Assembly (NCBI GenBank): GCA_963666365.2
Contig: CAXXNF010000002.1
Coordinates: 32,001 to 96,000, forward strand
Direction: 5' to 3'
Length of the DNA: 64,000 nt
Origin: Syntrophales bacterium
GTDB taxonomy: Bacteria; Desulfobacterota; Syntrophia; Syntrophales; UBA2210
The notes beneath the pieces are model-generated. The model did not search any database. It was not told the origin of the DNA and was given only the letters and a program-made list of their open reading frames with translations. Positions within the stretch are counted from its first letter, which is position 1, and each line of letters opens with the position of its first letter. A program made the translations under genes and the position numbers. Below are positions 30,001 through 41,700 of the stretch, piece after piece.

Positions 30001-32376
30001 AAGCAGCAGCTCTATGTGGACGGTGATCAACAGACCGTCACGAGAGAGTACATCAACAAGAGCGGTGTGATCGACAGCGACCCGGCGCCGCAGGCCGGGC
30101 AGACCGAAGGACGTGAGCAATCCTCCAGTTTCTCCTGGCAGACCGGAATCAACCTGGGCTATGCGCAGACAGCCGACGGCACGGCCCTCTATCTTGAAGG
30201 CGAAATGGACGAGGTCCGCATATGGCACAAGGCCCTGAGCGAGGAGTTGATTGTTGCCGACATGACCAACGACTACCCGGGTGAGCGCGTCTACCTGGTA
30301 GGTTACTGGAACTTCGATGAACCGTCAGCGACCAGCGTGCTCGACAGTTCTCTCTATGAGCGGAGCGGTGTCCTTGGCGGCGGCGTCGATACGCGCAGAC
30401 CGGTGCGGGTACGCGTGAATCCCGCGGAGAAGCCGACGGTTGCCACTGCCTATGACACGGCCTTCAAGACCGACATCCACCACCTGGCGGATCTGAACAG
30501 ACCCGGTCAGTTGACGCACCTGAGTCTGGATTACACCCGGACCTTTGATCTGACGCCGCTCGCTGAGCTGACGGAACTGGTGTTCCTGAGTCTGGACGGC
30601 GTGGTTCCCGCGGGAACGCCGATGCTTGCGGAAGTCGTGGATCACAGCGTTGATCATCTGGTGGAGACCAAGGACGGCACGGTGATCAACCTTGAGAAGG
30701 GGCACACGCTGGTCCTCAGCAGCGGCATCTTCGCCTGGAAACGGCTGCAGGTGGGCGGCGGCGTGGATACCGACGAGGCGTTCACCATCAGTCGCGGTAA
30801 TTGGGACGGCAGCGTCTTTGCCGGGTCGAGCACGGGAACCCATCTGCGTGTCGAGGCCTTTGGTGTGACTGAGTATCACAGTATCGCCGGCGGAAGCATC
30901 ATCCAGATCCTCTTCGACGGCGGGAACGGCGATGACGTACTTATAGTGGATGCCAGCGTGACACTGCCGGTGTACGCGGTGGCCGGCGACGGCAACGATA
31001 CTGTCACCGGCGGTTCTGGCGATGATTATATCTTCGGCGGCCGCGGGAATGACATCCTGACGGGCGGGGCAGGGGACGATGTGATTTCCGGCAACGAAGG
31101 CGACGATCGCTTCGTCTTTGCCGGCGCCTGGGGCAACGACATCATCAACGAGAATCCGGGCGAGGGTACGGACACGCTGGACTTCTCCGCCGTGGATGAT
31201 GGTCTGACCATTAACCTGGGCGGCGAGACCACCGACGGCATTAACACCGCCACCCATGAGGTCAACGCCTTCGAACGTGTGATCGGTGGTACGGGGCTCG
31301 ATACACTACGCCTGGTTCGAAAGACGGCCGACTCGGTAGAAATGACCGGCAACAGGATGATCTGGAACAAAGTGGGCATAGACTTCGAAGATACGGAGAA
31401 CCTCTATGTGAGGCTCGCTGAAACCGACGAAGACGGTAATGTGGTAAAACGGGTCGGCACCATCGACATAAGCGGCGCGGTGGACTTCTCAGTCTACTCC
31501 CTGGTTCTGGAGGCACAGTTGATTACCATCGAAGGCCAGGTGACGGCGAAAGACATCTCACTGAGCGCCACCTATCTGCTTAACATCGCGCAGGACTTCG
31601 ATGTCAGCGATGGCCGGGGTGACCTGGCGATTCTCCACGCCACCCAGTTGCGGATGGCGGTAGACAGGGGCATCGGAAGCCCGACTCAGCCGGTCTTTAC
31701 GCAGGTGAGCACGCTCGAAGCGGTCACGCAGGGCGCCGGTGGCATCTATGTGACCGAACTCGACGGTGTGATCGTCGGCGATGTGGACATGACTGCGGCG
31801 GGAGTGGTAGAGACGAACAAGGGTCTGAAGACCGGCGGCGGCGGGCGCATCACCCTGACGAACCTGGCGGGAGAGCTGATTGTTGCGAACAATGACGGTG
31901 AGCCGATGATCGATGCCACCGGAGGCCGGATCGTGATCACCACGGAAGAAATAGACATCCAGGGCAATATCCAGAGTCACAGGGATGTGGGCGGAACGCG
32001 GTACAGCGGAACCCTTGCGTTGCAGCCGCTGTCGGTGAACAGCGATATCGACATGGCCCTGGCGGAAGGCGACGGCACTGCCCGGTTCTCACTGAGCGCC
32101 GCTGAGCTCGATCATATCATCGAGGGCTTCGACGACGGAAGCGGCGCCCGTTTCATCAGGGACGGCGTACTGGTGGTGTTCGAAGGACGGTCCGGCATCA
32201 ACATCGGACGGGTGAACGGGCGGCACGACTTCACCGTCGGCAGCTATGTATTCCGCGACACGGTGACCCTGCGGTCGCCGGTACTGGGCGGCAGCTTCGA
32301 TGTGGTGGGCAAGATAGAACTCGCGCCGGTTGATGCGGAAGGCCGCGTGGTGGAACTGATATTCCTGGGGCCGTAG
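1..32376 (+). CDS. Giant multidomain RTX-repeat surface protein / adhesin A (reconstructed single gene, 5'-truncated, >10,700 aa, interrupted by indels at ~7150-10100)
   Basis: The frame of ORF 24..7178 is open from base 3 (VTTTDASVGGGDTL...). The same module types continue through alternating frames across 7150-10100 into ORF 10102..32376, with no intergenic-looking DNA. Stop codon TAG at 32374-32376. Confidence 0.8.
3..7178 (+). CDS. Gene A, first intact segment: RTX-type (hemolysin Ca-binding) repeats with IxGDNG spacer motif
   Basis: Dozens of GGxGxDxxxG nonapeptides in a recurring unit GGxDTIxGGxGxDIIIGGxGxDTIxGxxGxDxIxGDNG. The real coding frame shifts at ~7145-7155. Confidence 0.9.
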   Translation, partial: VTTTDASVGGGDTLTGDGGDDLIWGQAGGDTLYGNDGNDILFGDRGVVTFSAGVALRIETLDTANGGNDTIYGGNGNDAAFGGAGADTLQGESGNDIILGDHGVVVRADGSAAAQDVYTTDPTTGGADTISGGEGNNIVIGGPAGDTLSTGSGSDIVIGDSGYVVRNAGSVAERIYASYLPGTGDYDAGGNDTITIAGGANNVIGGVGNDTITTGTGLDVILGDNGTIGLGDTALGDEKYNVVTSDYANGGTDTINAGDGNNIVLGGSYSDSITTGNGWDLILGDNGKVVRGSDYVPSVIESLTGDIYGGNDALIDGGEGDDTIIGGNGDDTIRGGNGDDLLIGDNGRAVPGEASSIDVASGGSDTIDGGAGRDRIIGGMAGEASLKGGSEGDYILGDNGAILSTATTFADAGTVYRVTSESPASGGSETLIDGEGGNDIIIGGSAGDDTLTGGDGDDLIVGDNATVYTGEDTGALIWVESTYTNYGGGETIISGGPGNDIVIGGLGNDTIDGGDGHNVVLGDHGFVIAGGEIVSTAPEHAGQDEISTGAGDDIIIGGSDADTPITSGAGNDIILGDNGWVGRTDGIISGIVSGVYLSENTLVQTGTRGGSDASIDAGAGDDIVIGGKGNETVTAGTGDDIVIGDNGVVGRGFKAGVATADEWGIDRILWDGIGNYAQTASVDPETVAPTHTWSADEAFYGIATTYDEYNGVETIYGNDGEDILFGGSLGDTLISGGTGRDIIVGDNGAMERRPSAADVGSISRAYFDADGALQTGLLTPVWFASKEGDLYGGGEAKIDGGYDGDFIIGGIGSDSLIEGGLADDVIFGDNGAVARADGSVRANDFWSTDPSHGGVETIRGGDGADIIIGGSENDYAVTAPGTVGDILSGDGGDDIIIGDNGYITRSDADVVERIRTRSLENSVNYPRFGGNDTIDVGAAGIGNYTSFPTENRGSDIIIGGTGDDTVDGGWEDITDTIIGDNGVVVRTDPAAGTNPDGSSVSTDIWTLDPAYGGKDTLYGGAGNDIIIGGTGYADAYGVGGDVIYGGTGNDHIAGDGARVQRNATDGIEIFESRDAAYGGDDRIDREGMGRDVHAKGSDVVLGGTGHDIIHGGRTDDGAEIIFGDNGRVDYTQVRTVSVEQHLPNELYLTANLESLELDWDNTDVSFMGGDDTIDGGYGNDIVFGGPEEDTITGYYGLDVLIGDHGAAEHNSLNQLSMVWTTLPWGGGNDTITGDTGHDVLFGGAGNDLIYGNDGDEVIFGDNGTVVRFRESARDNDLYSTFPAFGGIDTLFGGEGNDTIFGGSGGDDQATDQVPSGTVTVDSNGYLTRAGGLAANGDIIYGDVADSSIQGYDEFLFGDSGYMDRDLSGTILEVYSRSWALSLDGMVTLRADRASDVTASGTFEITLNGTTHSLTFDGSGNATLADLVIDLNNAILAASPAPGEGLDAELDASSESGYLTFVGASDLGVYTIEVVDSALVQALGFVQRQLASVDYPNLGGNDAIDFAVGNKGAEVIIGGFGHDLMHGGLFDTSTDLIIGDNGVATRIQGQFILAGARSTDAGSGGSDDINGGPGYDILLGGPGDDLIIGHDGDDYLWGDGGRDLIWGGVAGADESNFRLAEGESAADKFDYAPGYLDAELDYPTGYEAPLITPKIFNGLSWDGHVTDGADTIRGGYGDDWIFGGGDADDLDGGPGSDYVDGGVGSDTATGGGGDDVVRGGANDDSLRGDFPFLGRYDSISTYLKVGDTGTPAQPDEYFAYRGYVTGRDQVYGEAGSERLFGDGGASDPIVFTGDSVSALTAAKTENPDKGYPASVFSFAGANNDLEFRAVSATAQYMGWTIRIVSGEIGCDIEVSWSIGAKTFTVVVDKGAHNANDVIDAVVDTPSSPFLAYGTYNNGDSDYADGEGSQAGQRLWGGEGIDYLYAYAPDDGDEQYTYRGDELHGGPGNDFLYGNVRKDTLLGEGGSDFLAGDWLVGRKYAQNQREAPYGPAEIGGDDLLQGGPGEDQLYGGGGNDTLWGGADSDWLEGQNGIDTLYGGGWIDTMVMDVRDTYNVFGDNINGHYGNQRKGDVYDDNATDILLIEASDFDDEIWISEETVLLSDNPYAVKEANFGFEQTFDLTLKASATAALVTVNLTISSNGNLDTLVSRFNDAFESSPQLTGKVEAVKRGYTIAILTRGMGRAATLTIAHFTAKGDNGLADLGFSDGQESVGQMVVDYTGYSGYEEKVVHRVLLGGWRGDDGKPMVEQFRISGLGGDDRIGFVEGTNALDASALSARSRDWVGVIDGGPGNDILSGSSARDRIDGGFGSDTIYGYGGDDQLWGDGGPGMGLPDDVDRIYAGQGNDDVLGGQGRNYLYAWSKDPNIGGINDTAVTELHFRDGSRSEGDRLYGR
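7145..10101 (+). other. Frameshift-riddled coding segment of gene A (probable low-accuracy sequence; alternatively local pseudogenisation)
   Basis: Recognisable pieces in changing frames: APVTGQLSADAHFSL, SIADLVADINAAL, GDDDLYGGTGLDFLYG, WKEYAK/SDKVWYYRGTNADDVISVDFVTEPG, HLITRLTNNNGNYTFD, RNDTIETAYNLG, LTIDNADDVDWYSF, GGNETAETAYLIEN. Many single-base indels within 3 kb, while the flanks are clean. Confidence 0.85.
9650..10865 (+). other. Three PPC-like (pre-peptidase C-terminal) domains
   Basis: Motifs NETAxxAY...GLTIxxxxDVDWFxF...G.Y.I.V repeated; no catalytic protease motif nearby. Confidence 0.6.
10102..32376 (+). CDS. Gene A, second intact segment (7424 aa): PPC-like, RTX, FG-GAP, MAM-like, P-domain, PA14, ELWxxDGT, LRR, LamG and C-terminal beta-helix-like module
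   Basis: Uninterrupted ORF. The GTG at 10102 lies mid-domain and is probably not a true start. Confidence 0.9.
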   Translation: MGTTSTDDHVVLDLDSLTAGAEGTDYLVKITADAQAAYSLYPHIGDAGETVIDLSRSAVLSINPDRVDMEGGNETAADAYRIADIEGISKIYGLTIDTTADVDWFVFTMGEDGTKADTFSLLRTNSESAIITFSLYDADGNRLLTSGGDVVTIDGGAYPASAYKYTGKTSATEAYVKLSLEGLAKGDYTIEVTADEPTYYELYPNIGAKGYTLKDLAGKSSSGISLSTLEAGTAYMLRVTSPNLVPTIYDLEFVLTAGEDANVQDMAQRTDAVRKDVIMGGPGNDVLMGGMGEDWIFGGPGNDVLCGGFDRQAPDLLFGEDGNDTFQLIPDALPLMEGSDQTYVPTFVDTMYGGDGVDRVLFLGGDTDNLGLDVPDYVSLRYNRILHRYELTALVWDKANQEFMTEVVPGAVIVAKDAPKESAGGSSAYDGRLAEDIIFDIILDNVTYTVTVPHALGDGIVTAANAPQIAANNITAVNLPTFASEDYTETFTVQVNDTSPVGIGVYTSQISTIAQMVTALNDAIASTSLNGKISAAAVSTTDGRLKITVIDSNDIVVISDGNSDGDLSYFGFEFNGLQVAIGDHSPVQVNVNGLTNDIEALAGLVNEAIRSTTLTGKVTMTKDAGGTKLVLQPVGILDGTAIEMVEASGETNLAFFGFTDGQSAQVNNSVADLAKDIVEALRTADKSGTTEDISDRINVGASGGRLIIQTSEIAKDSTLKVSGAGETTLGFTADQLPEPQKVIYTQTYIFYQTHQVEQTVIDVQGGDDVVRGDAGFTFPNVESEWGIDPGDVEQNGEISRLIIYGGDGNDHLYGGAYDDEIYGGDGIDFIAGGGGSDYLDGGPGQDLLAGDTTTAPDDYELVERIGEVATNDQPAYAAVLPAITRGLEIDGLTLHEGDAADWYLIETPDALRSFGSAHAAQLIMDMISVVFDEPNMQALYDSFPLTGSYLFAAGNVGSSGELEIVPVEKYSGVPDYYVLKIENVRSFSVTAINAVVTLGRLSADATFNISIDGGDPVAVTVSKASTDANVDIDNLIADVNTALTGAGLSATVKAEKVSIATGFRISLTGAYGMTIEISYADDNAASELGFVSGQSNSGRAPAMGRYKLVFSKELLGTAIDVAGADADVQISIGDPSYRPAAIPLGDINGDGYDDYIAAVKDNLTGSGFSYARVVFGSAAGTDFALEAAGGFILKLTAPVLYPTSTTQAQSFFAKPGDYNGDGKDDIIVSVTTPTGATVTGLEQAVYLIFGAVTWADEFDVYGQADVRIVGTAGAGALRGSSAGNVNGDAYGDFLVTQGSSAYLFYGKAKAIWETETGELLNEDFTSGLGGFSRDTIDAANLWHLTVLRSGDPNHSAGQSLYYGLDSTQTYNYIDSVSGLPEQTLGTVTSAETSLSGYTTATLSFKYYLETEGRPESYDQVKVVVLSTSDNWDTQTVTIVASNDSALADTVLSDPSSAWKSASVDLTDFAGKKIKIRFAFDSIDEVENQYEGWYVDDVRIVAPTSVSGANATFTVAAGFVSAAGIGDYNGDGFDDLAFLNAAGNVYLYYGATGATPFAGPIAVPASDPDLTLATGIVGTLTPLGNVNGDVSGDYAIDDFVVNGAGMSWIVLGGMGLDADLKIISTRYFINVGDIDGDGKDDLGALALESSPGLLQNGSVVTHAVGQVFLGRDSDSWAAACFTCPDLVFELDQPSYQDAGGATIPQHYFAGVGDINNDGKNDLAAAETLSTQVHLSYGTALTRYSAPAQPETDKPLPKVYVYELAKPNMGGTGSTAHTGIDVSNDTITDFTMHDAFAIEGSAIGQQLSSAQAIGDFDGDGSDDFMVSGTLASYIFLGPMDLTGLSNVNIAADFIIDAASLGTPADAMGDVNADGKTDLAFVRHDDAGNRTVVTVIFGGRVMPRTIDASSLEALYARTIELEDTLLEETGEITVMIGNWSGHVDVQTGRFFNDLLVVSSLPGATNSYGYVFAGDTIKARTTTMGTGDALVDLKLFTTTVNVADDRVPVRTPDLDTLESTTKVTIAPVHTVIGTAGAITDAGQNTYEINQSVSHAVGNGLTGQYYDGINLDQTISYTWSNYSDYGIYDYQTTYSHIYVGNSGLTNLSVSWQIYHTYIGDLRITVIAPNGTEYVVHNRSGGNTRANPWYLVSNVGIGTPGTTAGWWTFKVEDLAGSDQGWIDGWQIHGTVGGSSALTGTASTVNFGDTQPVTGQMETYSSRWTGYVSALASGYYQFRTYSDDGVRLYLNDGLVINNWTDHGGTYDYSGSYYLTTGTYYSIKMEHYQNYGGAVARLEWNGPGTNGWQVVPEQALFTANTGGTPKYITDSNITVSTINVNAATAGAAYPIASVEATVNLKHTYIGDLVISLVSPEGNTVILHNRSGGSTDDINGTYTVGTVPGLGILQGARADGNWQLKIEDKAGGDQGWLAQWSLKIATYQDIAESTPYSASATGISGNITDVNVRITLDHPNLSELKIELKHVVSNRTITLFDRNDLSGADLLGTVFDAGASSDIWNGTASYTGTFLPRGSLDFFDGQSPNSEWQLIITDYVHSTASGALVSWYLDVRTDEIIASTITVSGLSKDNDDVTLTDVNLWLNISHASSDNALNIWLVSPGGTEVQLCDSTEVTGRSLSGEVFDDEAGDSVLNGFFTAAHSDSEGNLNGTWTLKIQDTTGNVSGTLNGWTLYLGTSPTVSQIEVAGLPDGLRDLDVTVTLGDDPANGYDFNLDDYSLVVRKLNTDGTVLISKALFNQGTLTGSALGNVVLGTTFDDEAAIDIGAGDAPYTSSYKPVSYTEDGSGEQVDGLIAFDGIDPNGIWELVLTDHEGKTVGRIEDWSLTFSFEPEDADALSVVVGGDISGNGLDDLVIGVTSFNTAPNDEPDPRIGWAYVLGGRLSAANTGKGTVTNGNDLADETVIASAWTALGSDFMNARAVFNLAGGNNNLWFEALDADATANDILIKLVMDTDLTTDPAKASYHIGTRVLTITVRNRFTTANDVINAVQNDTEAAGFREIFRIALTAESVVNVTDHAGFRVSDTSLGAGVYALGDLNRDGYDDFAVSRTREDGGSALGGLLVFYGEASYGEGPVSALDASTMTDIIIQQATADELGATSLVGSLQATAGDINGDGVQDLIVGQPQVIRISSVSDEYSVNEILNRNERGSVYVFKSISTRSIQLTLAEADLIMDGEGEYDHFGYLALTPNIDLDGDRIDDLLIGAPTLDGILGGVKQDAGQIYLIYGNYRTAVMPVTGYGILTNRTITGSGSFLVDTGIGRPDRFYDPDLDGDGVLDATRYTIVTGEGQKWYRFTTLGDGYLGTMIRLTPAASAGMTVRLSGYDGVIAGGLVDPDGTVENDEFLVGPAVDTEETSFTVKFVGGAAQGSESASYDTDTDTLTVTIESGVSTANDIIKAINATTMAGASFRAVLAGTDNSGEGTVSDGNHSVKLNVVLAGDGLEMASGTAAILEFDLSAYLAYMDDPEVLAQVALLLSGLSGTAVTLPSPVSNLTVVDEDSLFFTTVDTNGIYQLWESDGTAGGTRQVAELTGTPGSLMDVAGTLYFTLEEGLVSTNLGTDNPDQLWKVQAGEPRIVFVDDFDATPDAVIAAGTKIFLNVNDKIRVVDTDGNGAWVTFGGSAIEGVTEMAEVGGTLYFIGDYLDQKTLFSTTGGTASLVAETESLYGTSGAFVATVDGAERIYFTAPYEGYNVLWYTAGGAAQVIRDSGDATLRAPANFTIFKGILLLSADNGVSGNDLWRSADGVNFTLVNSGAGINSGGAANPRNLFVYRNGTDTTDDDLLYLSAKGSDAAGSELWKSANGATFAQVKNINATSKGSSSPNNFAEFGGKVYFAADDGSSGFELWVTDGSAANTSRIRDINPGSASSSPRGLIVYDGVLYFSADDGTHGRELWTSDGTEGGTVIYKDIRDGEKSSDVGNFILFNNGTTDTEDDVLYFTADDGVHGNELWFMTSGTAGADITPPGSNNDMTLTSSDKEGGVSVVFAHGDVTMGAWTIAASTVTTVDPDGDDNGIRLTESGGDAKSLVLIHADGQDGDSATAFWLATDKIIKVEINSGVTRAGTIITAINTVSGDSDVTAANATGSDGSGIVGTGREASASWSSTSRTITVTIKAGVTTADDVIAAVNARTGETSITASLNSSVETGNDGSGTINTEPVTTAGGVDGAGPTWTLSLPGADNDILITGDTTTDYSGFAVNVVEDSDPGTNFTEFFAKASWNSDTSLLTISIATGQTTRNDIMGAVGTSLRPNAAIPLTASAAAGEPDNNGIVGITAITSGSSDGALSAVVINPEGDLNAVSVTAVNPGSGYDDLRVLYVDDGSVSDGTPVAVYDSVNNVLTVTIQSGVTTAQQVINAINAVTTDYTGTTADFNTLFQAAVNGAGTVTFTTPTHVTTGGSSGKSSVTISSTGGNNDVTIEADSAGVAYDGLRVLFYDDGTYAGNEASAIYDAGAKILMVLINNGSTTAIKVVEAINEIAGLNYTATYGGNGGGYVQVTTPADRTAGGVDGSAKAFVEVDVAGDDNVVRIEALANGSAANNAGIIFIDDVSVTGNDATVRWNADDHILIVKIEKDVTTAQTVIDTVNNYVSEDMDAFRTVYAASGPVTAGGTVAAPIAVTGGGNDGTAASGSFTVRDDAITVTAANLGTAYNNVQVLLVAGDTEGAVYNSDNKRITVTIDKNGTTTTADIATLIHGLADFNASGGDTTKVFTPTFTDVTGETGVDGVTGVAASATFTVAGNTIDVTADATGAEWSVSKLVLTSGGSLGAPSFDDATDTITLQIVAATTTTLQVASAIHDMGDFNVDTLPEDGTLAVAGTFNGTGVVTGVTAVTAVAASGTFTIQGGTTAITVTAATAGTAYNDVDVLLVADVNAGSESAGYVHAAGAGVITVHVAKDGSTTATIIKNKINGLTDFNATGGDTKNIFTDTYADATGSNGVDTAPSAADLDLNPDPAVDAVITVTAKADGTANDGVLIYVIDNGSIADGTAATQWDSVNEKLKITVQSGATTIGTVLTVINNTTGFKDLFEASSTDSGTIIVPSGLTDGGETATASKVTLTLDGSNNDLLVTAAQGGTDYDNVTVKLIDDGTITGTSTTAAASYNSADKVLTININSGYTTAGAIVTALGDGSSTKFTAAPTGSDGDTTGAVSLSRVTNPTGASGGGKASATVALAGTTTSISVTAENNGAAYSGVRIRFVDSVLEIGQETAVYNDIASEIVVSIKAGATTAARVIEVIDALADWNAVLASGSSGAKIDTAAVKTVGTYGMAADINSSGSASPSHLTMYEGKVYFTASDGTNGIELWAVNPVGNGVAMVADINVSGSAVPQYLTVFADDSDKEWLYFAAGNGTVKGLWRTDGTDTAQVGAFVTPSTLAAGSDRLAVISRDGSNNVLTLIATDGSTQGVGKQAPVTDASNLTGWEYAVDQHALVYVVDNGATYSLQTTASTSAIVTGSASIIDNLTGVGGNLFFTVGGKSLYVSVEGAAAVKVEEYPYLLENLTAVGDTLFFVYDSGTTDVLHAFTYASDATPVSVKRLSGDASLMINVNGTLFFKLGSDRGTSLWQSDGTQSGTVQVSSVSDGFTSTVPNPANMVVLSGSLYFTSTDWNGEAVLWKSEYDGETSIWTTGRLETFGGVPLPSITVEVLAAEGDGMITASDFAAPALAAYTTKSNQNFLDLTMVVREFLASGKTWLTLRLQSESAITLRRAWLADDSATGLIVETVERTGVVADLYTYEGRLLVQGQSIVDLSRFPAGTYFLKVYDPNNAIGTEKVLDDQGHQIGSPTLLTAVGDMAYFVHETKLWRTNGVSVAEVKIAGIPNGSVFSPANLIGVGETLFFTVGSGADTELWKTAGVFAEKVGDLSNGPAHMTAVGDSLFFFIDTSLYASDDSSVEFVKTLADIAASDITDPVASGEVFFFQVQGALWKSDGTADGTAAVSIVDPGVIDSQDLVAMNGFLYYLVREGSVVTLWKASPLEGELTGAEPLSIAALAAIDATATDLLGVLDGRLLFTVTDGKGTGTTDDDEVQLWITNGNGDKFFGDDVDGTYMINADIGGSADYLKIADGLLHFATKVADNVFQVWTTDGAEAGTVQKIGDAPGVITAAADLLPGRIMETVDLGGTLYLLTETDTYPMLWKSDGTKLELVTTLSGEAYGLTVVRDTLYFAVRMADAVTEDNDTPDDDSDDWTRDGYTLWKSDGSAAGTIMVKNLGNINPGIIDNLSAVGTRLIFTCLNVDDGTYDYSLWVTDGTGVGTVPIASGSAGTLPYGTAAITPKNFITVGETLFFTFQGALYKTNGTEESTEKVKEGTFTLLTDVNGTLFFETGGALWRSTGTLVDVPFTVAAKAPIAGASHAAADRDVIHGGDGDDILIGNADHDQLFGESGEDFFVAESKEIRDLASYETFDLPPAAEFSVNQPRSSDTEVYIPDNALRAGIARALDIPVTTDYLGRPLAHEPIYASAMSTLTELQLFGLGIENLTGIQFANNVTVLNLNDNRIMDLGLLVPATDPITGAPTGMANLGIFTIDHNGGGALSFDGVDDYVDIEADVSEIELTVTFWFRSDRGNVGLFSADAGIRGSEGHDRDIYLDAAGHMVALLWDGDSSQYEALITDAAFADGQWHHVAYLYSDNGAGTKQQLYVDGDQQTVTREYINKSGVIDSDPAPQAGQTEGREQSSSFSWQTGINLGYAQTADGTALYLEGEMDEVRIWHKALSEELIVADMTNDYPGERVYLVGYWNFDEPSATSVLDSSLYERSGVLGGGVDTRRPVRVRVNPAEKPTVATAYDTAFKTDIHHLADLNRPGQLTHLSLDYTRTFDLTPLAELTELVFLSLDGVVPAGTPMLAEVVDHSVDHLVETKDGTVINLEKGHTLVLSSGIFAWKRLQVGGGVDTDEAFTISRGNWDGSVFAGSSTGTHLRVEAFGVTEYHSIAGGSIIQILFDGGNGDDVLIVDASVTLPVYAVAGDGNDTVTGGSGDDYIFGGRGNDILTGGAGDDVISGNEGDDRFVFAGAWGNDIINENPGEGTDTLDFSAVDDGLTINLGGETTDGINTATHEVNAFERVIGGTGLDTLRLVRKTADSVEMTGNRMIWNKVGIDFEDTENLYVRLAETDEDGNVVKRVGTIDISGAVDFSVYSLVLEAQLITIEGQVTAKDISLSATYLLNIAQDFDVSDGRGDLAILHATQLRMAVDRGIGSPTQPVFTQVSTLEAVTQGAGGIYVTELDGVIVGDVDMTAAGVVETNKGLKTGGGGRITLTNLAGELIVANNDGEPMIDATGGRIVITTEEIDIQGNIQSHRDVGGTRYSGTLALQPLSVNSDIDMALAEGDGTARFSLSAAELDHIIEGFDDGSGARFIRDGVLVVFEGRSGINIGRVNGRHDFTVGSYVFRDTVTLRSPVLGGSFDVVGKIELAPVDAEGRVVELIFLGP
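14053..14601 (+). other. MAM/ConA-like jelly-roll domain inserted in the FG-GAP region
   Basis: LSFKYYLETE...YD...WKSASVDLTDFAGKKIKIRFAFDS...EGWYVDDVRI pattern. Confidence 0.65.
16078..18612 (+). other. Cluster of five proprotein-convertase P-domains plus one PA14 domain
   Basis: HTYIGDL...L..P.G and G.W.L.I.D...G.L..W.L motifs repeated. PA14 signature GLTGQYY ... SSRWTGY...G.Y.F...SDDGVRLYLND...NNWTDH...IKMEHYQNYGGAVARLEW. Confidence 0.85.
20581..29100 (+). other. ELWxxDGT beta-propeller repeats (two blocks, ~20581-27010 and ~27450-29100)
   Basis: LYFxAxDGxxGxELWxSDGTxxGT...DI repeats, e.g. VLYFSADDGTHGRELWTSDGTEGGTVIYKDI, plus many degenerate LWKSDG copies. Confidence 0.85.
21988..25899 (+). 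repeat. Array of 12 degenerate ~105-aa 'NND..TTA' domains inserted in an ELWxxDGT blade
   Basis: Consensus GxNNDxxITAxxxGxxYNxVxVxxxDD...AxAxY...LTVxIxSGxTTAxxVIxAIN...FxA...GxGxV; 12 TTA-helix motifs counted. Confidence 0.8.
29371..30600 (+). other. Internalin-like LRR domain split by a LamG/pentraxin-like domain (29686-~30470)
   Basis: Cap IPDNALRAGIARAL, then LTELQL..LGIENLTGIQFANNVTVLNLNDNRIMDL. LamG motifs ALSFDGVDDYV, DGQWHHVA, LYVDG, GEMDEVRIW, LVGYWNFDE. LRR resumes at LTHLSLDY..FDLTPLAELTELVFLSL. Confidence 0.8.
30913..31310 (+). repeat. C-proximal RTX nonapeptide repeats of protein A
   Basis: GGNGDD, AGDGNDTVTGGSGDDYIFGGRGNDILTGGAGDDVISGNEGDDRFVF...WGNDII...GTDTLDFS. Confidence 0.85.
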
Positions 32377-32430
32377 GGTAAAGAAAAATATGGCTCGCGC
32401 AGAGGCGCGGGGACGCAGGGGAGACAGAAG

Positions 32431-32579
32431 GATACCTTTGAAGAACCTTATGAAATCATCTATTTCGTCATGCCGGCAGGTCCCGGATCAAGTCCGGGGG
32501 GGGTATCCAGTTTTTTTAAGTACTTTCTGGATTCCGGGTCAAGCCCGGAATGACAGAAGAGGGAATTGTGCCAGGTCTC
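32431..32579. mobile_element. Possible degenerate MITE bounded by GAGACCTTTGCA-like terminal inverted repeats
   Basis: Left end GATACCTTTGAAGAA; right end (reverse complement) GAGACCTGGCACAATTCCC. Recalled resemblance to IS5-family (IS1106-type) ends; no transposase in the window. Confidence 0.35.
32466..32554. repeat. CGTC-type REP-like palindromic dimer
   Basis: CGTCATGCCGG...CCCGGATCAAGTCCGGG...TATCCAG spacer CTGGATTCCGGGTCAAGCCCGGAATGAC. Internal hairpins TTCCGGG-TCAAG-CCCGGAA and CCCGGA-TCAAG-TCCGGG; termini GTCAT/ATGAC. May also act as a terminator or mRNA stabiliser for gene A. Confidence 0.75.
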
Positions 32580-32679
32580 AAGGAGATACACGGGTAATGA
32601 AAAGAGTCTTTCTCTGCGGACTCAGCGCCCCAGCGGGAGAAAAAGAAGAGAGTTGACGAAACCTGCCAATAATAAGATG

Positions 32680-32708
32680 TTGCGCTGGGACGGCAGGAAA
32701 TGTATAGT
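32680..32708 (+). promoter_or_regulatory. Putative sigma70-type promoter for gene B
   Basis: TTGCGC (32680-32685), 17-bp spacer, TATAGT (32703-32708), 44 bp upstream of the GTG start in AT-rich DNA. Confidence 0.55.
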
Positions 32709-32740
32709 AGATAAACTTTTCTAAACCCGATTTTTCTTGT

Positions 32741-32744
32741 GGAG
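32741..32744 (+). promoter_or_regulatory. Ribosome-binding site of gene B
   Basis: GGAG 8 nt upstream of GTG 32753. Confidence 0.6.
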
Positions 32745-32752
32745 CACTTTTT

Positions 32753-35700
32753 GTGAATAAACGGGAATCGGATACTATGTTTCAGCTTGAGGGGCTTGAG
32801 CAGAGGATCATGCTTTCGGCTGATCCGCTGGTGGGCGCCCTTGCGTTGGAGCTTGCCACGCTCGATTCCCCAGTCTCCGCCACATATAGTGAATATCCAT
32901 CAGAAGTAATCGATATTTCTTGCGATCTGTCGTTCCAGGAAGGGAATCCATCGGGCGAGTACGATCCCGACGCCGGCCTCGACGATCTTCTCGGCGGGCT
33001 TCCCGAAGAGCACATCAACGGCGTCGATGGTGAAGATTCCCTCACCGGGCTCGATGCCGCCGCGGCCGAAGAGGCCGATGCACCGGCGGCACGTTCACCC
33101 TTTGCCGTCACCGAACCGCAGGGGAGTGAAGGAGTTCTCTTTTTTGAAATGCTCGATACGCGGCTGCAAACAGCCGTGTATGAGTTCTACGGCGACAGCC
33201 TCGATCCTCCCGCCGCCGACGTGGTCCTGTCAGTAACACAAGATGGAAGTTTATTAATTGAAATCGGCACGTTACCCATTCTCGTCAGCGTAACGGATGC
33301 GGACAATGGTGGGGTGCATCTTTCGATCATCGCATCCGGTGAAGCGGATGAATTTCTCGTAATATCGGGGTTTTCAGTTGCATATGCCGACCTGATATTT
33401 CCTCTGCCGGCGGCTGAGTCTCTCAGTGCAGTTTCAGGAAAAATTGATATTCAGGGCGGTCTGAGCCTGGAGGGCAGTCTGCGTCTCGAGGCGGATACCA
33501 TCCTTATCGGCGCCCCTGTGCAGGCTTCCGATATCACCCTCACAGCGGGGACAATCGAAATCGATGCCCCCCTCGAAGGAACCGGCGATGGCGTGCTTGT
33601 GCTTCAACCGGCTGATGCCGATGCCGTCATCGATGTCTGCGCCGACACCGGTGCGGCCTTCGCCCTCGACGCAGAGGAATTGGATTTTATCGACGGCGGA
33701 TTCCGGGACGTCATCATCGGCCGTGAGGATGGGGCCCATGCCTTCACCCTCGGCGCCTACACCTTCGGCTTTCCGGTACTCTTCCGGGCGCCTCTCGAGG
33801 GCGGCGCCTTCGATGTGGTGGGAACGCTGCGCACCTCAGACGCCGTAAACGATATCGAACTGGGGATTTCCTTTCTCGGTTCGGGCCATACCAAGACCGT
33901 GCACACCGATACGGTGACTGCCGGCTTCGAAATTAACATCGGCGAAAGCGTTATCGTTGCCGGTGATGCGTCAGGCGTCATGGGCAACGGGGCGGTCTAT
34001 TATGATACCACGAATAACGGCGCCAACCCCACAGGCAATAATATCTATGTGAGCGGTCAGATCGACGGCCAGACGCTCGCGAGTTCCAGCTACAACAATA
34101 TGAACGTACGCATCGTGGCCGATGTGGCTGCCGGCGGGGCGGCCCATGCGGCCTATTCGTCCAGCCTGAACCGGCTCACGATCCATGTGGAAGACGATGG
34201 ATCATCGACCTCGGCCGATGTGGCCGCCGCCATCGGCAGGGTGTACAATTTTTATAATGCCGCTGCTTCAGGCACGGCTGCAGTGGGAACGGACGCGCAG
34301 AATTACCTGTCCGTGACCTCCGGTGGTTCCGCGGCCGCGCTTGCCAACGGATCATTCACACTGGGAAACGGCAACACCATCACCTTCAAGGCCGGTAATC
34401 CCGCCGGGGCGGCCTCCTTCAACGGGTCAGGCGTGCGGGTGATTGCCGACAGCGCGACCGATGCCGGCTATGCCGAATACTCGGTTTCGGATAAAATCCT
34501 TTATGTGCATATTAAAAGCGGTGTGACCACCACGGTGCAGATGAGGGAAGCCATCGCTGCGGTCTTCAATTTCTTCGACGAGACCGGCGGTGACGCAAGC
34601 GTTGTTACACTGAGCAAGACCTTTGCCTATGTGACCACCGGCGGCAAAGATGAACCCGCTGCTGCAGCTTCGGGCACATTCATCCTGTCAGGAGATACAA
34701 TTATCCTTACGGCTGCTGCCACCGGCGCATCCTGGAACGGCGTTAATGTGGTTATCGTGGCCGATGCCGCGGCGGTGAGCGCCATCTACAACGGCGGAAC
34801 AAAAGTCATCACCGTCCATGTAAAAAACGACGGGACATCCACCACTGCCGAGGTGCGTACCGCCATCAACGGCCTGGCGGACTTTACCGCCTCCGGCGGA
34901 TCCACCAACAAGGTGGCGCTGACGAAAGATTATTCCGCGGCCATCACCGGCGGCGACTACCAGACGGCCGCCAGCGGTTCCTTTACCATCGGTGATGATA
35001 CCATCGCCTTCAAGGCGGGTCGCACCATTGACGGGACCGCCTTCAACGGTCTGGATGTCCAGGTTGTCCTCGATGCCACAATCACAACTGGGGCCTGGGC
35101 CGAGTACGATGCTCCCACACGAACCCTGGTTGTGCATGCTCTTGAAACCGCCACCACCGCCGATGTGGCGGAGACTCTGGGAACGCTCTTCAATGTCTAC
35201 GATGCAGTCAGCAGCGGTAATTCGCTGGTGAATCTTTCCGCTGACTTTGACAATGTAACCACTGGCGGCAACCTCAACCAGGCGGCTTCGGGCAGCTTTG
35301 ACTTGAATGGCGACACCATCACCTTCAGCGCCGGCCGCCGGGGACAGGCGCTCTACCTGAATGCGGGGACCGACGGCGACATCACCATCCAGGGGGCTGT
35401 GGGGGTGGGAACGGCCCTGGAGCACCTTTACATCGTCAGTGCCCGCAATGTGATTGTCAACGGTCAGGTTATTCTCAGCGGCGACCTGGTGCAGGTACAG
35501 GGAACGGGAACAAGCGAGTTCGATCTGGATGTGACCGCCGGGCGGCATGTGAATATGAATGTCGAGGCGGCGATTACCTTCCAGGGAACCCTTCAGTCCA
35601 ATCACGGCGATGCGACACTGACGGTCGATCAGAGCAATGCGAGTGGCCTCATTGACATAAACAGCGCCCGCGTGCTTGCCGGCGACCTTATCATCAATGA

Positions 35701-38700
35701 AGCACGCAACGTCAGTTTTCAGGCAATTGTGACCGTTTCCGGTGCGATATACCAGTTCGCCGGTCTCGCGAATACGAGATTCTATGGTCCTGTTTCCGCC
35801 GGCAGTATCGGCATCATGGCCAACAGCCTCATCGATTTCAGAAGCACCGTGGTCCTCACCGAAGGCGATATATTTCTGATTTCGGACGAGATCGATTTCA
35901 ACGGCGGCGCCGCTTCCGTGACGGGCAAGTCTGCCATCGTACTTATGCCCACGACAAACGAGACGAGCATCGATGTGGGCTCCCCCGTGGGAGGGACGGG
36001 AACGCTTTCCATCAGCGACACGGACCTGGCGGCTCTGACCGACGGGTTTCAGTATATCCAGATTGGGTACGAGTCAGATTATGTCCACACCATGGTCGTC
36101 GGATCGAGCGCCTTTCTGGATCCTGTTCGGCTCTATGCGGGTGAAATCATTATAAACGGTAATGTGACGGGGAAGACTTCGGCATTGTTGTATGTCTCCG
36201 GCGTTGTGAGTGAAGGCGATATTCTCGCCGGTTCCCCCGCAGTCACCATCGATACCGCCGAATTCCGTATTACCAACGAGAAGATCGACGATGTATGGCT
36301 TCCCGCCGAGATCAACGTTCTTGTCTACAACGGGGACATTCTTTTGATGAATAACGGTGCGATCAACGCCAGTCTGGACACGGAGAGCACCTCAGAGACC
36401 ACGACGGTTGTCCTCACTGCGGCGAACGGCAATATTTGTCGCCAGGCTGGCTCCGAAGGATTGGTGAGCGGCACGGATCTGCAGGTCACCGCCACGGGCA
36501 ACATCGATCTCAAGACTACCGTCACCACCGCAGAGCTGTCTTCAACGGCATCAGGATCCATAACCATCGTGGAAACCGACGGCATCGACCTTGTTTCTGT
36601 CACCACAGAGAACGGTCCCATCGATATCCGGGCCGGCGGCGCCGTAATCGCGCAAAATGTAGTTTCGGTTACAGACGATGCCGGTAACGATATTACTATT
36701 CTGACCACGACCGGAAATCTTCAGGTGCAGGTGGTTGATGCACAGACCCTGGGCCATGTGGCTCTTACGGCTGAAAACGGAGCGGTGAACGATGCTGCCG
36801 GAGTCGATGCCGCAGGAACGCCAAACGTAGTGGCCAATACCGCCACGATCACGGCGAAAAACGGAATCGGCAGCGTTGCCGCCCTCGGCGATTTCAACAT
36901 GTATCTTACTACCGTTGGTGATGCCGTTGCCGGGCTGGTGGCGGAAAATACCGGTACAAGCGGCGACATCGTCGTCACGCAGGCGGCGGACGCCGGCGAC
37001 ATGACCCTTGCTGCGGCCCAGAGCAACCTTTCCGGCGCCGGTGCGGTGGTCGTATTCGTTCTCGGCGGCAACCTGACCGTGACATCCACGGGGATTGCCA
37101 TTGCCGGTTCGGGAAACACCCTGCTGAGCGCTTCGGCCGGTCTCGTGTTGAATGCACCGGTGGCGAGTACCGGCGGCAATGTCAGCCTGAGTGCCGGGGC
37201 CGGTATTACACAGACTGCCAGCGGCGACATTACGACATCGGGTGCGGGGTCGACCGTTGACATGAAGGCCGACGGCGCGATCGCCATGTTCGACGGCGCC
37301 GTGACACAGACAAACAATGGGAACATCCGTTACGAGGCTTCGACGGGCAACGTTATCCTGGGCGAACTCAAGGCCGGGACGGCGAAGGTTGCGGTGATCG
37401 CCACGGAGGGCAGTATTCTCGATTTGGATACGGACACCTCTGCGACGGACATTGCCGCCGGCGATCTGATTCTGACGGCGGGGACGGCCATCGGGGCATC
37501 GGACAACCACCTGGAAATTTCGGTTGTCAATCTGACCGCCAAATCCACTGCAGGTTCCACCTTTATTAATGAAGCGGATTCGGTCACGATCACAAATCTG
37601 ACCGTGACGGTGGAGCGTGTGACGTCCGACGGGACGCTCGATGTCACGCAACCGTCGAGCACCCAGGAAGACATGACAAGCGGCGGCATCCTTGTGTTGA
37701 CCACCATAAACGGATTCATTACGGTCAACGGTGGTACGGTCACCGCGGCTTCGGGGATCAATGCTGCGGGGAACATCCTTCTTTCGGCGGGAGAGACGAG
37801 CGAGGGGACGGCGACCGACAGCAATATCACCATCAATGGGTTGATCGCGAGTACGGGCGGCCACATCAGTATCATTGGAAAGGACGGCATTACGCAGACT
37901 GCCAGCGGCGACATTACGACATCGGGTGCGGGGTCGACCGTTGACATGAAGGCCGACGGCGCGATCGCCATGTTCGACGGTGCCGTGACACAGACGAACA
38001 ACGGGAACATCCGGTACGAGGCGGCGACGGGTAACGTTATCTTGGGCGAACTCAAGGCCGGGACGGCGAAGGTTGCGGTGATCGCCACGGAGGGCAGTAT
38101 TCTCGATTTAGGTACGGACACCTCTGCGACCGACATTGCCGCCGGCGATCTGATTCTGACGGCGGGGACGGCCATCGGGGCATCGGACGATCACCTGGAA
38201 ATTTCGGTTGTCAATCTGACCGCCAAATCCACTGCAGGTTCCACCTTTATTAATGAAGCGGATTCGGTCACGATCACAAATCTGACCGTGATGGTGGAGC
38301 GTGTGACGTCCGACGGGACGCTCGATGTCACGCAACCGTCGAGCACCCAGGAAGACCTGACAAGCGGCGGCATCCTTGTGTTGACCACCATAAACGGATT
38401 CATTACGGTCAACGGTGGTACGGTCACCGCGGCGGCGGGGATCAATGCTGCGGGGAACATCCTTCTTTCGGCGGGAGAGACGAGCGAGGGGACGGCGACC
38501 GACAGCGATATCACCATCAATGGGTTGATCGCGAGTACGGGCGGCCACATCAGTATCATCGGAAAGGACGGCATTACGCAGACTGCCAGCGGCGACATTA
38601 CGACATCGGGTGCGGGGTCGACCGTTGACATGAAGGCCGACGGCGCGATCGCCATGTTCGACGGCGCCGTGACACAGACAAACAATGGGAACATCCGTTA

Positions 38701-41700
38701 CGAGGCTTCGACGGGCAACGTTATCCTGGGCGAACTCAAGGCCGGGACGGCGAAGGTTGCGGTGATCGCCACGGAGGGCAGTATTCTCGATTTGGATACG
38801 GACACCTCTGCGACGGACATTGCCGCCGGCGATCTGATTCTGACGGCGGGGACGGCCATCGGGGCATCGGACAACCACCTGGAAATTTCGGTTGTCAATC
38901 TGACCGCCAAATCCACTGCAGGTTCCACCTTTATTAATGAAGCGGATTCGGTCACGATCACAAATCTGACCGTGACGGTGGAGCGTGTGACGTCCGACGG
39001 GACGCTCGATGTCACGCAACCGTCGAGCACCCAGGAAGACATGACAAGCGGCGGCATCCTTGTGTTGACCACCATAAACGGATTCATTACGGTCAACGGT
39101 GGTACGGTCACCGCGGCGGCGGGGATCAATGCTGCGGGGAACATCCTTCTTTCGGCGGGAGAGACGAGCGAGGGGACGGCGACCGACAGCGATATCACCA
39201 TCAATGGGTTGATCGCGAGTACGGGCGGCCACATCAGTATCATCGGAAAGGACGGCATTACGCAGACTGCCAGCGGCGACATTACGACATCGGGTGCGGG
39301 GTCGACCGTTGACATGAAGGCCGACGGCGCGATCGCCATGTTCGACGGCGCCGTGACACAGACAAACAATGGGAACATCCGTTACGAGGCTTCGACGGGT
39401 AACGTTATCTTGGGCGAACTCAAGGCCGGGACGGCGAAGGTTGCGGTGATCGCCACGGAGGGCAGTATTCTCGATTTAGGTACGGACACCTCTGCGACCG
39501 ACATTGCCGCCGGCGATCTGATTCTGACGGCGGGGACGGCCATCGGGGCATCGGACGATCACCTGGAAATTTCGGTTGTCAATCTGACCGCCAAATCCAC
39601 TGCAGGTTCCACCTTTATTAATGAAGCGGATTCGGTCACGATCACAAATCTGACCGTGATGGTGGAGCGTGTGACGTCCGACGGGACGCTCGATGTCACG
39701 CAACCGTCGAGCACCCAGGAAGACCTGACAAGCGGCGGCATCCTTGTGTTGACCACCATAAACGGATTCATTACGGTCAACGGTGGTACGGTCACCGCGG
39801 CGGCGGGGATCAATGCTGCGGGGAACATCCTTCTTTCGGCGGGAGAGACGAGCGAGGGGACGGCGACCGACAGCGATATCACCATCAATGGGTTGATCGC
39901 GAGTACGGGCGGCCACATCAGTATCATCGGAAAGGACGGCATTACGCAGACTGCCAGCGGCGACATTACGACATCGGGTGCGGGGTCGACCGTTGACATG
40001 AAGGCCGACGGCGCGATCGCCATGTTCGACGGCGCCGTGACACAGACAAACAATGGGAACATCCGTTACGAGGCTTCGACGGGCAACGTTATCCTGGGCG
40101 AACTCAAGGCCGGGACGGCGAAGGTTGCGGTGATCGCCACGGCCGGGTCTATCATCGATGGCGATAGCGCCGTGGATATAATAGCCGCCGAGGTGCGCAT
40201 GACAGCCGGCTTCGGTATCGGCAACGCCTCAGATCCGCTCGAACTGACGGTGAACACAATAAGCGCCTTCGCGGGACCCGGCGGGATGGCCCTTGCGTCA
40301 ACCGGCGCTGTTACCGTCGGATCGGTCGATATAATTGCCCGAAGGGTGATTGCCAACGGTGGAGACGAACTGGTCTACGACGTGATCCAGAGCGGTCTTC
40401 ATACGGACAATGCCGGATTCATCGTGCTTCATGCCGGCGGAACCGTGACCGTGGTTCCCGGAAAGGCGTCGGCGGTGCTGTTTCCCGACAGTGCCGAGGA
40501 GATCACGCTTGTCGCGGACGAAGGCGGGACCGCTTTCAATGGTTATGTCATCAGCCTCGAAAACGACAGTACTATCGCCGGTGACGATGCGATTGCTTCC
40601 TATAATAGTGACACGAAGACACTCACCGTAAAGGTGAGAAGCGAACAAACCACGGCAGGAACGCTGGTAACTGAGATTAATGCGGTGGACGATCTTCCCT
40701 TCACTGCGATGAGCACCGGGCCGGCCGGTGATGCCCTCGTCGTGACGGTCGGGGCTTCCGGTCTCGATTACTCGTCCCGGAACGGGACCGACGACACGGT
40801 CATCTCTGAAATTTCCACGGTGACCGACGGCGGCGACGAGGCGCTTCCCGCTTCCGCCGTCCTCCTGCCGCCGACGATAGGATTCGGTATCAAGGTGACC
40901 TCAGAAACCGCCGGCGCCGACACCAACGGCATCACCGTCAGACTGCTGGACGACGGAGCGGGTGGATATCTTGCCGACGGGACCGATACGGCGGCCGTGG
41001 TCTATGATGATGTGAACAGACGCCTCAATATATTCATCAACAACGGATTCACGACGGTCGGTGCCGTCGTGGACGAGATAAACGCCGCAGACTTGCCCTT
41101 TGCCGCAGCCATCGAAGGCAACGGAGACGGAACGGTCGTGTTGCACACAGCGCCGGTTGCCACCGTGGTGAATGTCCCCGCCCGTGTATCACTGGCGCCG
41201 CCCGGCGCAAAGAACGATATGATCATTACGGCCGCGGCTGCCGGCACCCCGTATAACGGAGTGACAGTGCGGTTCATCGATGACGGCAGCATTGCCGGAA
41301 GCAATGCCACCGCTTCCTACAACGCCGCAGACAAGATACTGACCGTGTCCATCAGAAGCGGCGCGACAACGGCCAATGCGGTCGTTACCGCCATCAACAC
41401 CCAGGGAACCTTAACGGCAGCGCTCGATACCACCACCGAGACCGTCAACGACGGGTCCGGGACCGTGCAGAGCATGTCGAGTCTGAGTTACGGGGGAGAT
41501 GCCGACACAGTGGCTCTTGCCTTTGTGCGCCCCTCGGGTGCTGAAAACGATATCCAGTTCGAAGCCAAGGACTACGGGACAGGTTTCAACGGCATCCGTA
41601 TCGATCTGATCGACGACGGTTCCTTAATTGACGGTACCGCTCGGGCCACCTACAACACGGGAACGAAGGTGCTGACCATTAACATCCAGAGTCAGTTTAC

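Follow-up and report, generated by a model that had tools for sequence, protein, structure and literature searches.

Two adjacent giant LEPR-XLL genes of a Syntrophales bacterium as likely halves of one exoprotein: a conserved junction that is fused in some relatives and split in others

Introduction

Why should a bacterial protein of many thousands of residues stop at the very position where its giant neighbour, carrying a copy of the same sequence, reads on? The question is raised by a 64,000-nucleotide stretch of DNA (the window) from a Syntrophales bacterium (GenBank assembly GCA_963666365.2, contig CAXXNF010000002.1, positions 32,001 to 96,000 of the forward strand), in which two very long open frames follow one another on the plus strand: A at 10102–32376 (7424 aa) and B at 32753–61669 (9638 aa). 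An initial annotation, made from the sequence alone, had noticed that the end of A resembles a module near the start of B, and had suggested that the two chains couple head to tail. We now consider it likely that A and B together make up what was one giant exoprotein of the LEPR-XLL type, each being one half of it, that some relatives encode this protein in a single gene, and that they meet at a conserved fission/fusion junction with an overlapping duplication. Whether the two products still join is a separate matter, to which we return in the Discussion.

Results

The tail of A and the head of B align in the same order, as the initial annotation had claimed from coordinates and sequences that agree with ours. 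The last ~150 residues of A are homologous to B residues ~261–383 (BLASTP, 44/129 identical, E 1e-13), and a second collinear segment, GTIDISG.. in A and GKIDIQG.. in B, has 18/38 identities (BLASTP, E 0.003); a hand count of 20/36 identities made earlier proved exact. The A tail unit comprises 306 aa (31456–32373, plus strand), within which the junction module, delimited by alignment to the B copy and by profile search, occupies 31930–32373; the corresponding head unit of B, which is an old copy of the A tail unit and includes its own junction module, spans residues 229–376 (33437–33880, plus strand, G229 being encoded at nt 33437). The module cores are 42% identical (MAFFT). A ends ...GRVVELIFLGP and is closed by a TAG at 32374–32376, one residue past the aligned FLG, while B reads ...ISFLG and passes through into GSGHT, its body (33881–61669, plus strand) being counted from S377 (SGHTKTV, nt 33881) and collinear with the post-module part of the fused relatives described below. 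This register is as first reported. Between its two B-aligned pieces A holds ~120–190 extra residues, which resemble the ~215-residue repeats at the C-terminal end of B (E 1.5e-5). The third and more diverged copy inside B, also noted at the outset, does exist (about 35861–36136, plus strand) and is kept in B-like relatives. At the DNA level the A and B copies are 68% identical over 112 nt, and their longest exact common word is 15 nt; they are too diverged for a present-day recombination joint, which was rejected, and a currently active joint of the kind that the annotation had listed among its alternatives is unlikely.

The stop codon itself is sound. An independent marine-sediment metagenome (X3) contains a 34.6-kb contig that spans window positions 31000–32422 and differs from the window by substitutions only; none of the 13 listed differences falls at the A stop, and nine of them are synonymous. 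This contig ends in a dispersed intergenic repeat, so that hardly any of B is covered. The same stop register is repeated at 13 other loci (L014 included), and a sequencing error, which the annotation had named among the things that would refute its proposal, can be set aside on these two grounds.

These other loci come from a small census of 14 non-redundant A-type junctions: the window, L004–L007, L011, L012, L013, L015–L019 and L039, with L014 near-identical to L013 and the two counted once. A scan of species genomes gave four loci (L004 from Thalassobacterium, L005 and L007 from metagenome-assembled genomes of Verrucomicrobiota, and L006 from a complete Kiritimatiellota genome), a search of 401 Verrucomicrobiota genomes added L039, and a metagenome scan gave 21, of which nine (L011–L019, E<=4e-18) carry A-type tails. 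The remaining 12 metagenome loci (L020–L031, E 2e-10 to 8e-6) were set aside because they have the module internally, in long open frames where no stop comes within 57 residues; L040–L045 were left out on the same ground.

Thirteen of the 14 junctions are split, and in each of them A ends 0–7 residues past an invariant G (FLGP, FLGWEFAL, YDGWNE, FEG, FLGSTS, YKGPSP, FIGP, FLG, YLGSNQ, LNGPSAGNGG, FLGAYD, LIGSTQ and YIGGNG). The next same-strand gene opens with an LEPR motif at all 13, beginning 70–755 nt after the A stop, and no A-type tail without a B gene was seen among the census loci. The NF012209 model matched every one of 13 N-termini scanned, namely 11 downstream genes of other loci, B itself and the presumed head of A on a second contig, C1; its cut-off of 17 bits was reached in 12 of these, L013 scoring 16.7, and L039 was recognised by motif only. 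B scored 30.5 and 31.8 bits at residues 10–32 (nt 32780–32848, plus strand), which places the LEPRxLL motif within B residues 1–376 as annotated, and the presumed A head scored 31.4 bits.

What follows the leader of the downstream gene is less uniform. In eight of the 13 split loci (the window, L004, L005, L006, L011, L012, L013 and L016) this gene has its own N-proximal copy of the module, followed by GSG[HQN]T or GTGT, although the B copy of L013 is very diverged, and in L016 the contig ends inside the copy and a stop lies in the leader. We refer to such loci as overlap-split. The other five (L007, L015, L017, L019 and L039) are clean-split: the downstream gene has no module copy and, after its leader, starts at or within ~10 residues of the GSxxT rung. 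The expectation that the register would recur in other genomes is thus borne out for the stop and for the LEPR-XLL gene behind it, and the paired downstream copy is found in 8/13.

The fourteenth junction is not split at all. L018 has one uninterrupted frame of 2781 aa, which runs through the module (..VHLIG-SFSTTVL..) into sequence of the B-body type, its junction reading ..KARVHLIG-SFSTTVLSADVHTDG.. Two further proteins, P0023 and P0031, are fused as well and continue for 430 and 425 B-body-like residues past the module; upstream of it P0023 has Laminin_G_3, Pentaxin, LRR and RTX domains and P0031 has RTX. L018 comes from metagenome assemblies and the other two from a context-free protein library. 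In all fused forms the module is single and the A part runs directly into the B part. The split pairs can be laid along L018. L017A ends at its residue 1464, and L017B, which opens with 184 leader residues, picks up again at 1467 (41% identity over 1117 columns); L019A aligns to residues 197–1463 (48% over 1287 columns) and L019B from 1435 (38% over 1184). Both pairs are thus collinear with one frame and overlap at most at the junction. Window A aligns up to residue 1451 and window B from 1333, with further collinear blocks that reach 2719, the overlap being confined to 1333–1451. Judged by these alignments, the split pairs are collinear halves of the fused protein, the window type overlapping by exactly the module.

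How general is the module? A profile built from the A and B copies and run against 1.84 billion representative proteins matched 94 proteins at E<=1e-3, 36 of these at E<=1e-10, and the matches fall into three position classes. In the C-terminal class (20 proteins) the module lies <=18 residues from the C-terminus and the profile is matched to position >=134; among the 11 of these scanned with Pfam, RTX repeats occur in eight and Laminin_G_3 in six, and P0016 also has P_proprotein and FG-GAP, which is A's own domain set. In the N-proximal class (P0019, P0025 and P0051) the module stands ~200–400 residues from the N-terminus, after an LEPR motif, and is followed by GSGHT or GPGHT as in B. The internal class contains many proteins with 2–11 module copies, which are regularly followed by ..L.GSG.TT.L.ADI.T.G..; among 27 module matches scanned, a two-partner secretion (TPS) domain was found in seven, with 2–7 internal copies, and a CHAT domain in two. 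Taken together, the three classes indicate that the B form of the module is the generic one, and that the A form is the generic unit truncated at the glycine.

Neither Pfam nor NCBIfam has a model for the module: in both, the A tail has no match beyond its RTX block and the B head none beyond LEPR, and seven generic module-bearing proteins are likewise without a module family match. Word-indexed protein searches returned zero matches, both for the module against proteins of 273–2000 aa only and for B residues 1–400 against proteins of 5300–16867 aa, and the module was absent from 40 relatives of the window's genome (E<=0.01).

An AlphaFold2 (AF2) model of the last 306 residues of A is all-beta (pLDDT 84.9, pTM 0.85) and predicts a right-handed beta-helix. 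Its best structural match is EtpA (8vba), the shaft of a two-partner-secretion adhesin (Z 12.6, rmsd 3.7, 234 residues aligned), while the secretion domains of HxuA and FHA score Z 7.9–8.5; a Foldseek search against the PDB had given nothing at E<=0.001, and the matches came from a wider structural search. In the prediction of the B head (A5), residues 1–124 are disordered, residues 150–219 have a pLDDT of ~80 and residues 220–330 of ~90, and the prediction has B's own module well folded and running without a break into the following sequence. A complex prediction of the A tail (306 aa) with B (A5 residues 120–470) scored 0.00 in two runs made without controls, and is evidence neither for nor against an interaction.

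The history of the duplication was approached with a maximum-likelihood tree of 43 module copies. One branch (support 100/98) has nine B-head copies on one side, and the A tails, the fused copies and four internal outgroup copies on the other. The fused copies nest within the A tails beside the clean-split L017 and L019, and two changes are needed to account for them. A and B copies are 16–45% identical within a locus, while between loci A tails reach 99% and B heads 69%; these values show that there has been no concerted evolution of the two copies. The tree points to a single old origin of the B-head copies, and, because clean-split loci adjoin overlap-split ones (L015 beside L006), the B copy must have been lost more than once.

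The leader of B has a counterpart too. B residues 1–192 (32753–33328, plus strand) show homology over their whole length to the leader of an LEPR frame at the start of contig C1 (BLASTP, 71/231 identical, E 4e-17). The end of C1 (reverse complement of C1:1–30) overlaps C2:1–20 by 14 nt within a tandem repeat (..GSFTVTDASTHTSTSLNNVSYLEV..), and on the strength of this overlap the C1 frame is probably the head of A. Gene A would then probably run from C1:10792 into C2 over at least about 75 kb and encode roughly 25,000 residues, if the frame breaks described below are errors. With leader homology to the A head and head-unit homology to the A tail, the first 376 residues of B are a mosaic of an A leader copy and an A tail unit copy. 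A simple scenario for its origin would be a partial tandem duplication from leader to module, after which the second copy lost the A body.

Five genes lie directly upstream of the presumed A head, on the minus strand (C1:11254–19806, locus L008). They encode a TolC-like OEP (522 aa), an HlyD (291 aa), a GAF-HlyD (624 aa), an M50-like protease-adaptor (MFP, 718 aa) and a truncated SecA paralogue (678 aa); there is no ABC transporter among these five, the rest of the genome not having been searched for one. Orthologues of the M50-MFP protein (43–48% identity) with adjacent SecA paralogues (45–54%) occur in all four other genomes that have an A/B pair, and in the one complete genome checked, the entire cassette is found ~42 kb downstream of the A/B junction and on the same strand. 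Since the LEPR leader is present exactly where a new chain starts, and is missing there in the fused forms, it fits the role of an export tag.

The remaining features of the window concern the giant genes themselves and their surroundings. Directly ahead of the A tail is a block of RTX-type calcium-binding repeats (30883–31357, plus strand; residues 162–319 of the translated window:30400–32373), which matches PF00353 at 39.3 bits and RTX-type models of NCBIfam, falls inside the last 500 residues of A and places the repeats ~350–500 residues before its C-terminus. The 7424-aa frame is the last open frame of A. Earlier pieces are in other frames, at window 3–7178 and as fragments between 7197 and 10081, with further pieces before the window, and the 2.9 kb ahead of 10102 is a patchwork of short frames. 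Frames resembling A reach 14,839–20,466 aa in four Verrucomicrobiota genomes. The frame of B, for which GTG at 32753 and ATG at 32777 are start candidates, breaks near 61669, and the gene carries on in other frames at 61837–63867 and past the end of the window; the B residues just before 61669 are out-of-frame junk, and the repeat resumes in another frame. The reading frame thus shifts at window 7178–10100, ~61670 and ~63870, and also at C2:2885–3051, 11207–11507 and 39175–42060. Such breaks in both giants may reflect either misassembly within repeats or genuine decay.

Within B, window positions 34100–35300 (residues ~450–850) hold an insert of several ~90-residue repeats (..LTIHV..GSSTT..VAAAI..VYNFY..), for which no family match was found. 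In the window's clade this insert separates the first beta-helix rungs from the LYLNAG rung, and it is missing from the Verrucomicrobiota B-like genes; P0019, P0025 and P0051 were part of the comparison. The spacer between A and B (32377–32752, plus strand, 376 nt) contains one copy, at ~32452–32567, of a dispersed repeat of ~115 nt with hairpin-forming arms, another copy of which lies upstream of the A head at C1:10926–11025. The repeat gives 36 BLASTN high-scoring segment pairs across the genome (85–100% identity) and read-depth spikes of 40–50-fold in three runs; short-read contigs break at it, and it makes the spacer longer than in most related loci. The G+C content of the giant-gene locus is 54–67% in 2-kb windows, mostly about 58–62%, compared with 51.5 and 52.8% for the two contigs. 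This raised G+C and the failure to find the module in the 40 related genomes suggest horizontal acquisition of the locus. A third LEPR-XLL giant locus of the same genome (C2:2347822–2378938, minus strand), whose frames are 3849 and 6562 aa long, differs in its N-terminal architecture, and BLASTP detected no copy of the junction module in it.

Discussion

Fission of an ancestral gene accompanied by duplication of the module, offered in the initial annotation as the first alternative to coupling, gives the best fit to the collinear fused relatives and the conserved register. The cut would fall at the end of a ~110–150-residue beta-helix module, with an overlapping duplication in this genome and in 7 of the 12 other non-redundant split loci. 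A would keep the module as its extreme C-terminus, and B would consist, in order, of a copy of the A export leader, an old copy of the A tail unit (module included) and the body from GSGHT onwards. Each half may be exported separately through its LEPR leader by the SecA-like/M50-HlyD/HlyD/TolC cassette, and the two chains could still act as one fibre. Given the adjacency at all 13 split loci, the conserved register and the repeated fused/split interchange, we think that the halves probably do still work as one.

How they would do so is more tentative. The open beta-helix end of A may dock head-to-tail onto B, a proposal suggested by the same adjacency, register and interchange, with the fused relatives as its support. 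A fuller version, in which two separately exported giants (>=25,000 residues if the contigs are correctly joined, and roughly 11,000) dock outside the cell into one fibre of >35,000 residues, strikes us as doubtful. The uncapped C-terminal rung of A would then stack on the N-terminal beta-helix of B, and the module would be a natural split-protein site, opened and closed repeatedly, at which fused, clean-split and overlap-split forms are interchangeable. Several observations weigh against these ideas or against the history on which they build. B has a complete module of its own with a confidently folded stretch before it, and the A tail folds confidently alone, so that by prediction neither half needs the other to fold; the B copy is also dispensable, being missing in 5/13 split loci. 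We found no expression data for A or B, and there is no RNA run among the sequencing runs listed. The link from A to the head on C1 depends solely on the 14-nt overlap of contig ends in a tandem repeat, and the several frame changes that interrupt A in the window mean that it could be decaying, unless they are assembly errors. The tree, being unrooted, requires two fused/split changes either way, and fits fission as well as fusion.

A real possibility, then, is that there is no coupling, and that A and B are independent giants sharing a beta-helix building block, their register being a domain boundary left by a single old event. The module is indeed widespread, with its 2–11 internal copies per protein and its company of TPS (7/27) and CHAT (2/27) domains; each half has its own leader and is predicted to fold by itself; and, as all B-head copies go back to one old origin, their register may have been passed on by descent and not maintained by selection. 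Less easily accommodated are the adjacency kept at 13/13 split loci, those of Verrucomicrobiota and Kiritimatiellota included, and the lack of any A-type tail seen without a B gene. Split and fused states, moreover, have interchanged at the same residue at least twice in one clade, which is easiest to understand if the halves form one unit. The initial annotation had favoured something more specific, namely that B residues 1–376 are a pro-piece cut off near G376/S377, and that the A module takes the place of the B module to give a continuous beta-helix filament. Part of this survives: in the fused relatives the A module directly abuts the GSxxT rung, so that the end of A and the body of B are consecutive there, and in the 5/13 clean-split loci, which the idea fits better than it fits the window, the A end is the only module at the joint. 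The neighbouring cassette also encodes an M50-type membrane protease. The cleavage finds no support, however, as neither a motif nor processing evidence was found at 376/377, and G-SG-x-T follows the module in many internal copies of unrelated long proteins and is evidently the ordinary next rung. With B's own module predicted to fold in place, continuous with what follows, and with no B module to replace in five loci, we regard the replacement as improbable; were a leader removed, the LEPR motif at residues 10–32 would be the likelier recognition site.

It is also very improbable that the A tail is a type I secretion signal whose similarity to B is incidental. Its position behind RTX repeats and the HlyD/TolC-type genes nearby would suit such a signal, but in the fused relatives this tail lies inside the chain, where at least 425 to 1328 residues come after it and a free C-terminus is evidently not required; none of the five cassette genes is an ABC transporter, and the beta-helix that forms the tail has homologues among the internal units of other proteins. 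That the junction is an artefact, with the A stop a sequencing error or the genes a recently broken pseudogene, we dismiss almost entirely. The several frame breaks in the assembly of both giant genes lend it some colour, yet the stop is retained in an independent metagenome contig that differs by substitutions only, mostly synonymous, its register recurs at the other loci, and behind it come a spacer of 376 nt and a complete LEPR leader.

The LEPR-XLL giants rank with the largest proteins of bacteria, and the occurrence of one conserved junction in fused, clean-split and overlap-split forms amounts to a natural experiment, marking a point at which a giant chain tolerates a cut and is nonetheless retained by selection. 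The junction predicts that two neighbours act as one unit and links the LEPR leader to export. It also supplies small, expressible pieces for tests of beta-helix docking, namely the last 306 residues of A and B residues 229–~470.

The architecture described here recalls several known systems. Gene pairs that are fused in some genomes and split in others ('Rosetta stone' pairs) in general predict joint action of their products, and in the long tail fibre of phage T4 separate fibrous chains are joined end to end; here the pieces are longer than 10,000 residues, the cut falls within a beta-helix, and the joining is a proposal. RTX adhesins of type I secretion, of the LapA and MpIBP type, are giant modular surface proteins with RTX repeats toward the C-terminus and HlyD/TolC-type neighbours. 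A is likewise giant and modular, with RTX repeats toward its C-terminus and neighbours of these types, but its cassette is without an ABC transporter and the homologous tail is internal in L018, P0023 and P0031. TpsA exoproteins (FhaB, EtpA, HxuA) are approached in fold, the A tail being nearest to the right-handed beta-helix of the EtpA shaft, and differ in that B and the presumed head of A carry an LEPR leader at the N-terminus in place of a TPS domain. No TPS domain (PF05860) was found in B, in the window pieces of A or in the A head on C1; a TpsB partner was not searched for.

A further likeness is to the LEPR-XLL giants themselves (NF012209, 'LEPR-8K'), whose motif scores above the curated cut-off in B and in the presumed A head, and whose length of thousands of repetitive residues is matched by both frames. 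In the literature searched, supplements not being covered, neither a split junction that is conserved nor a duplicate of its module was found described, and no experiments on export or assembly of LEPR-XLL giants came up. The accessible part of a 2023 giant-gene preprint on Omnitrophota reports other secretion neighbours. Cag_663 and Cag_665 of the Chlorochromatium epibiont (bioRxiv 10.64898/2026.03.19.712371) are two adjacent giants whose N-termini carry a LEPRxLL motif of 24 aa; their beta-helix repeats are hemagglutinin-like, and the locus includes a TolC-like gene. By description, and as far as the accessible text goes, the two cases differ in that the tolC-like gene lies between the giants there and neither a shared junction module nor a fused/split relation is described. 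Finally, a secondary locus of SecA_DEAD, Peptidase_M50/HlyD, HlyD and GAF genes, with or without OEP, has been described computationally (Kamneva, Poudel and Ward 2015, PMC4452313). The text of that paper, to the extent available, names no substrate, with 0 occurrences of 'giant' or 'large protein', and in this it differs from the present locus; the ABC-less five-gene cassette is the same, and here it stands directly upstream of the head of A.

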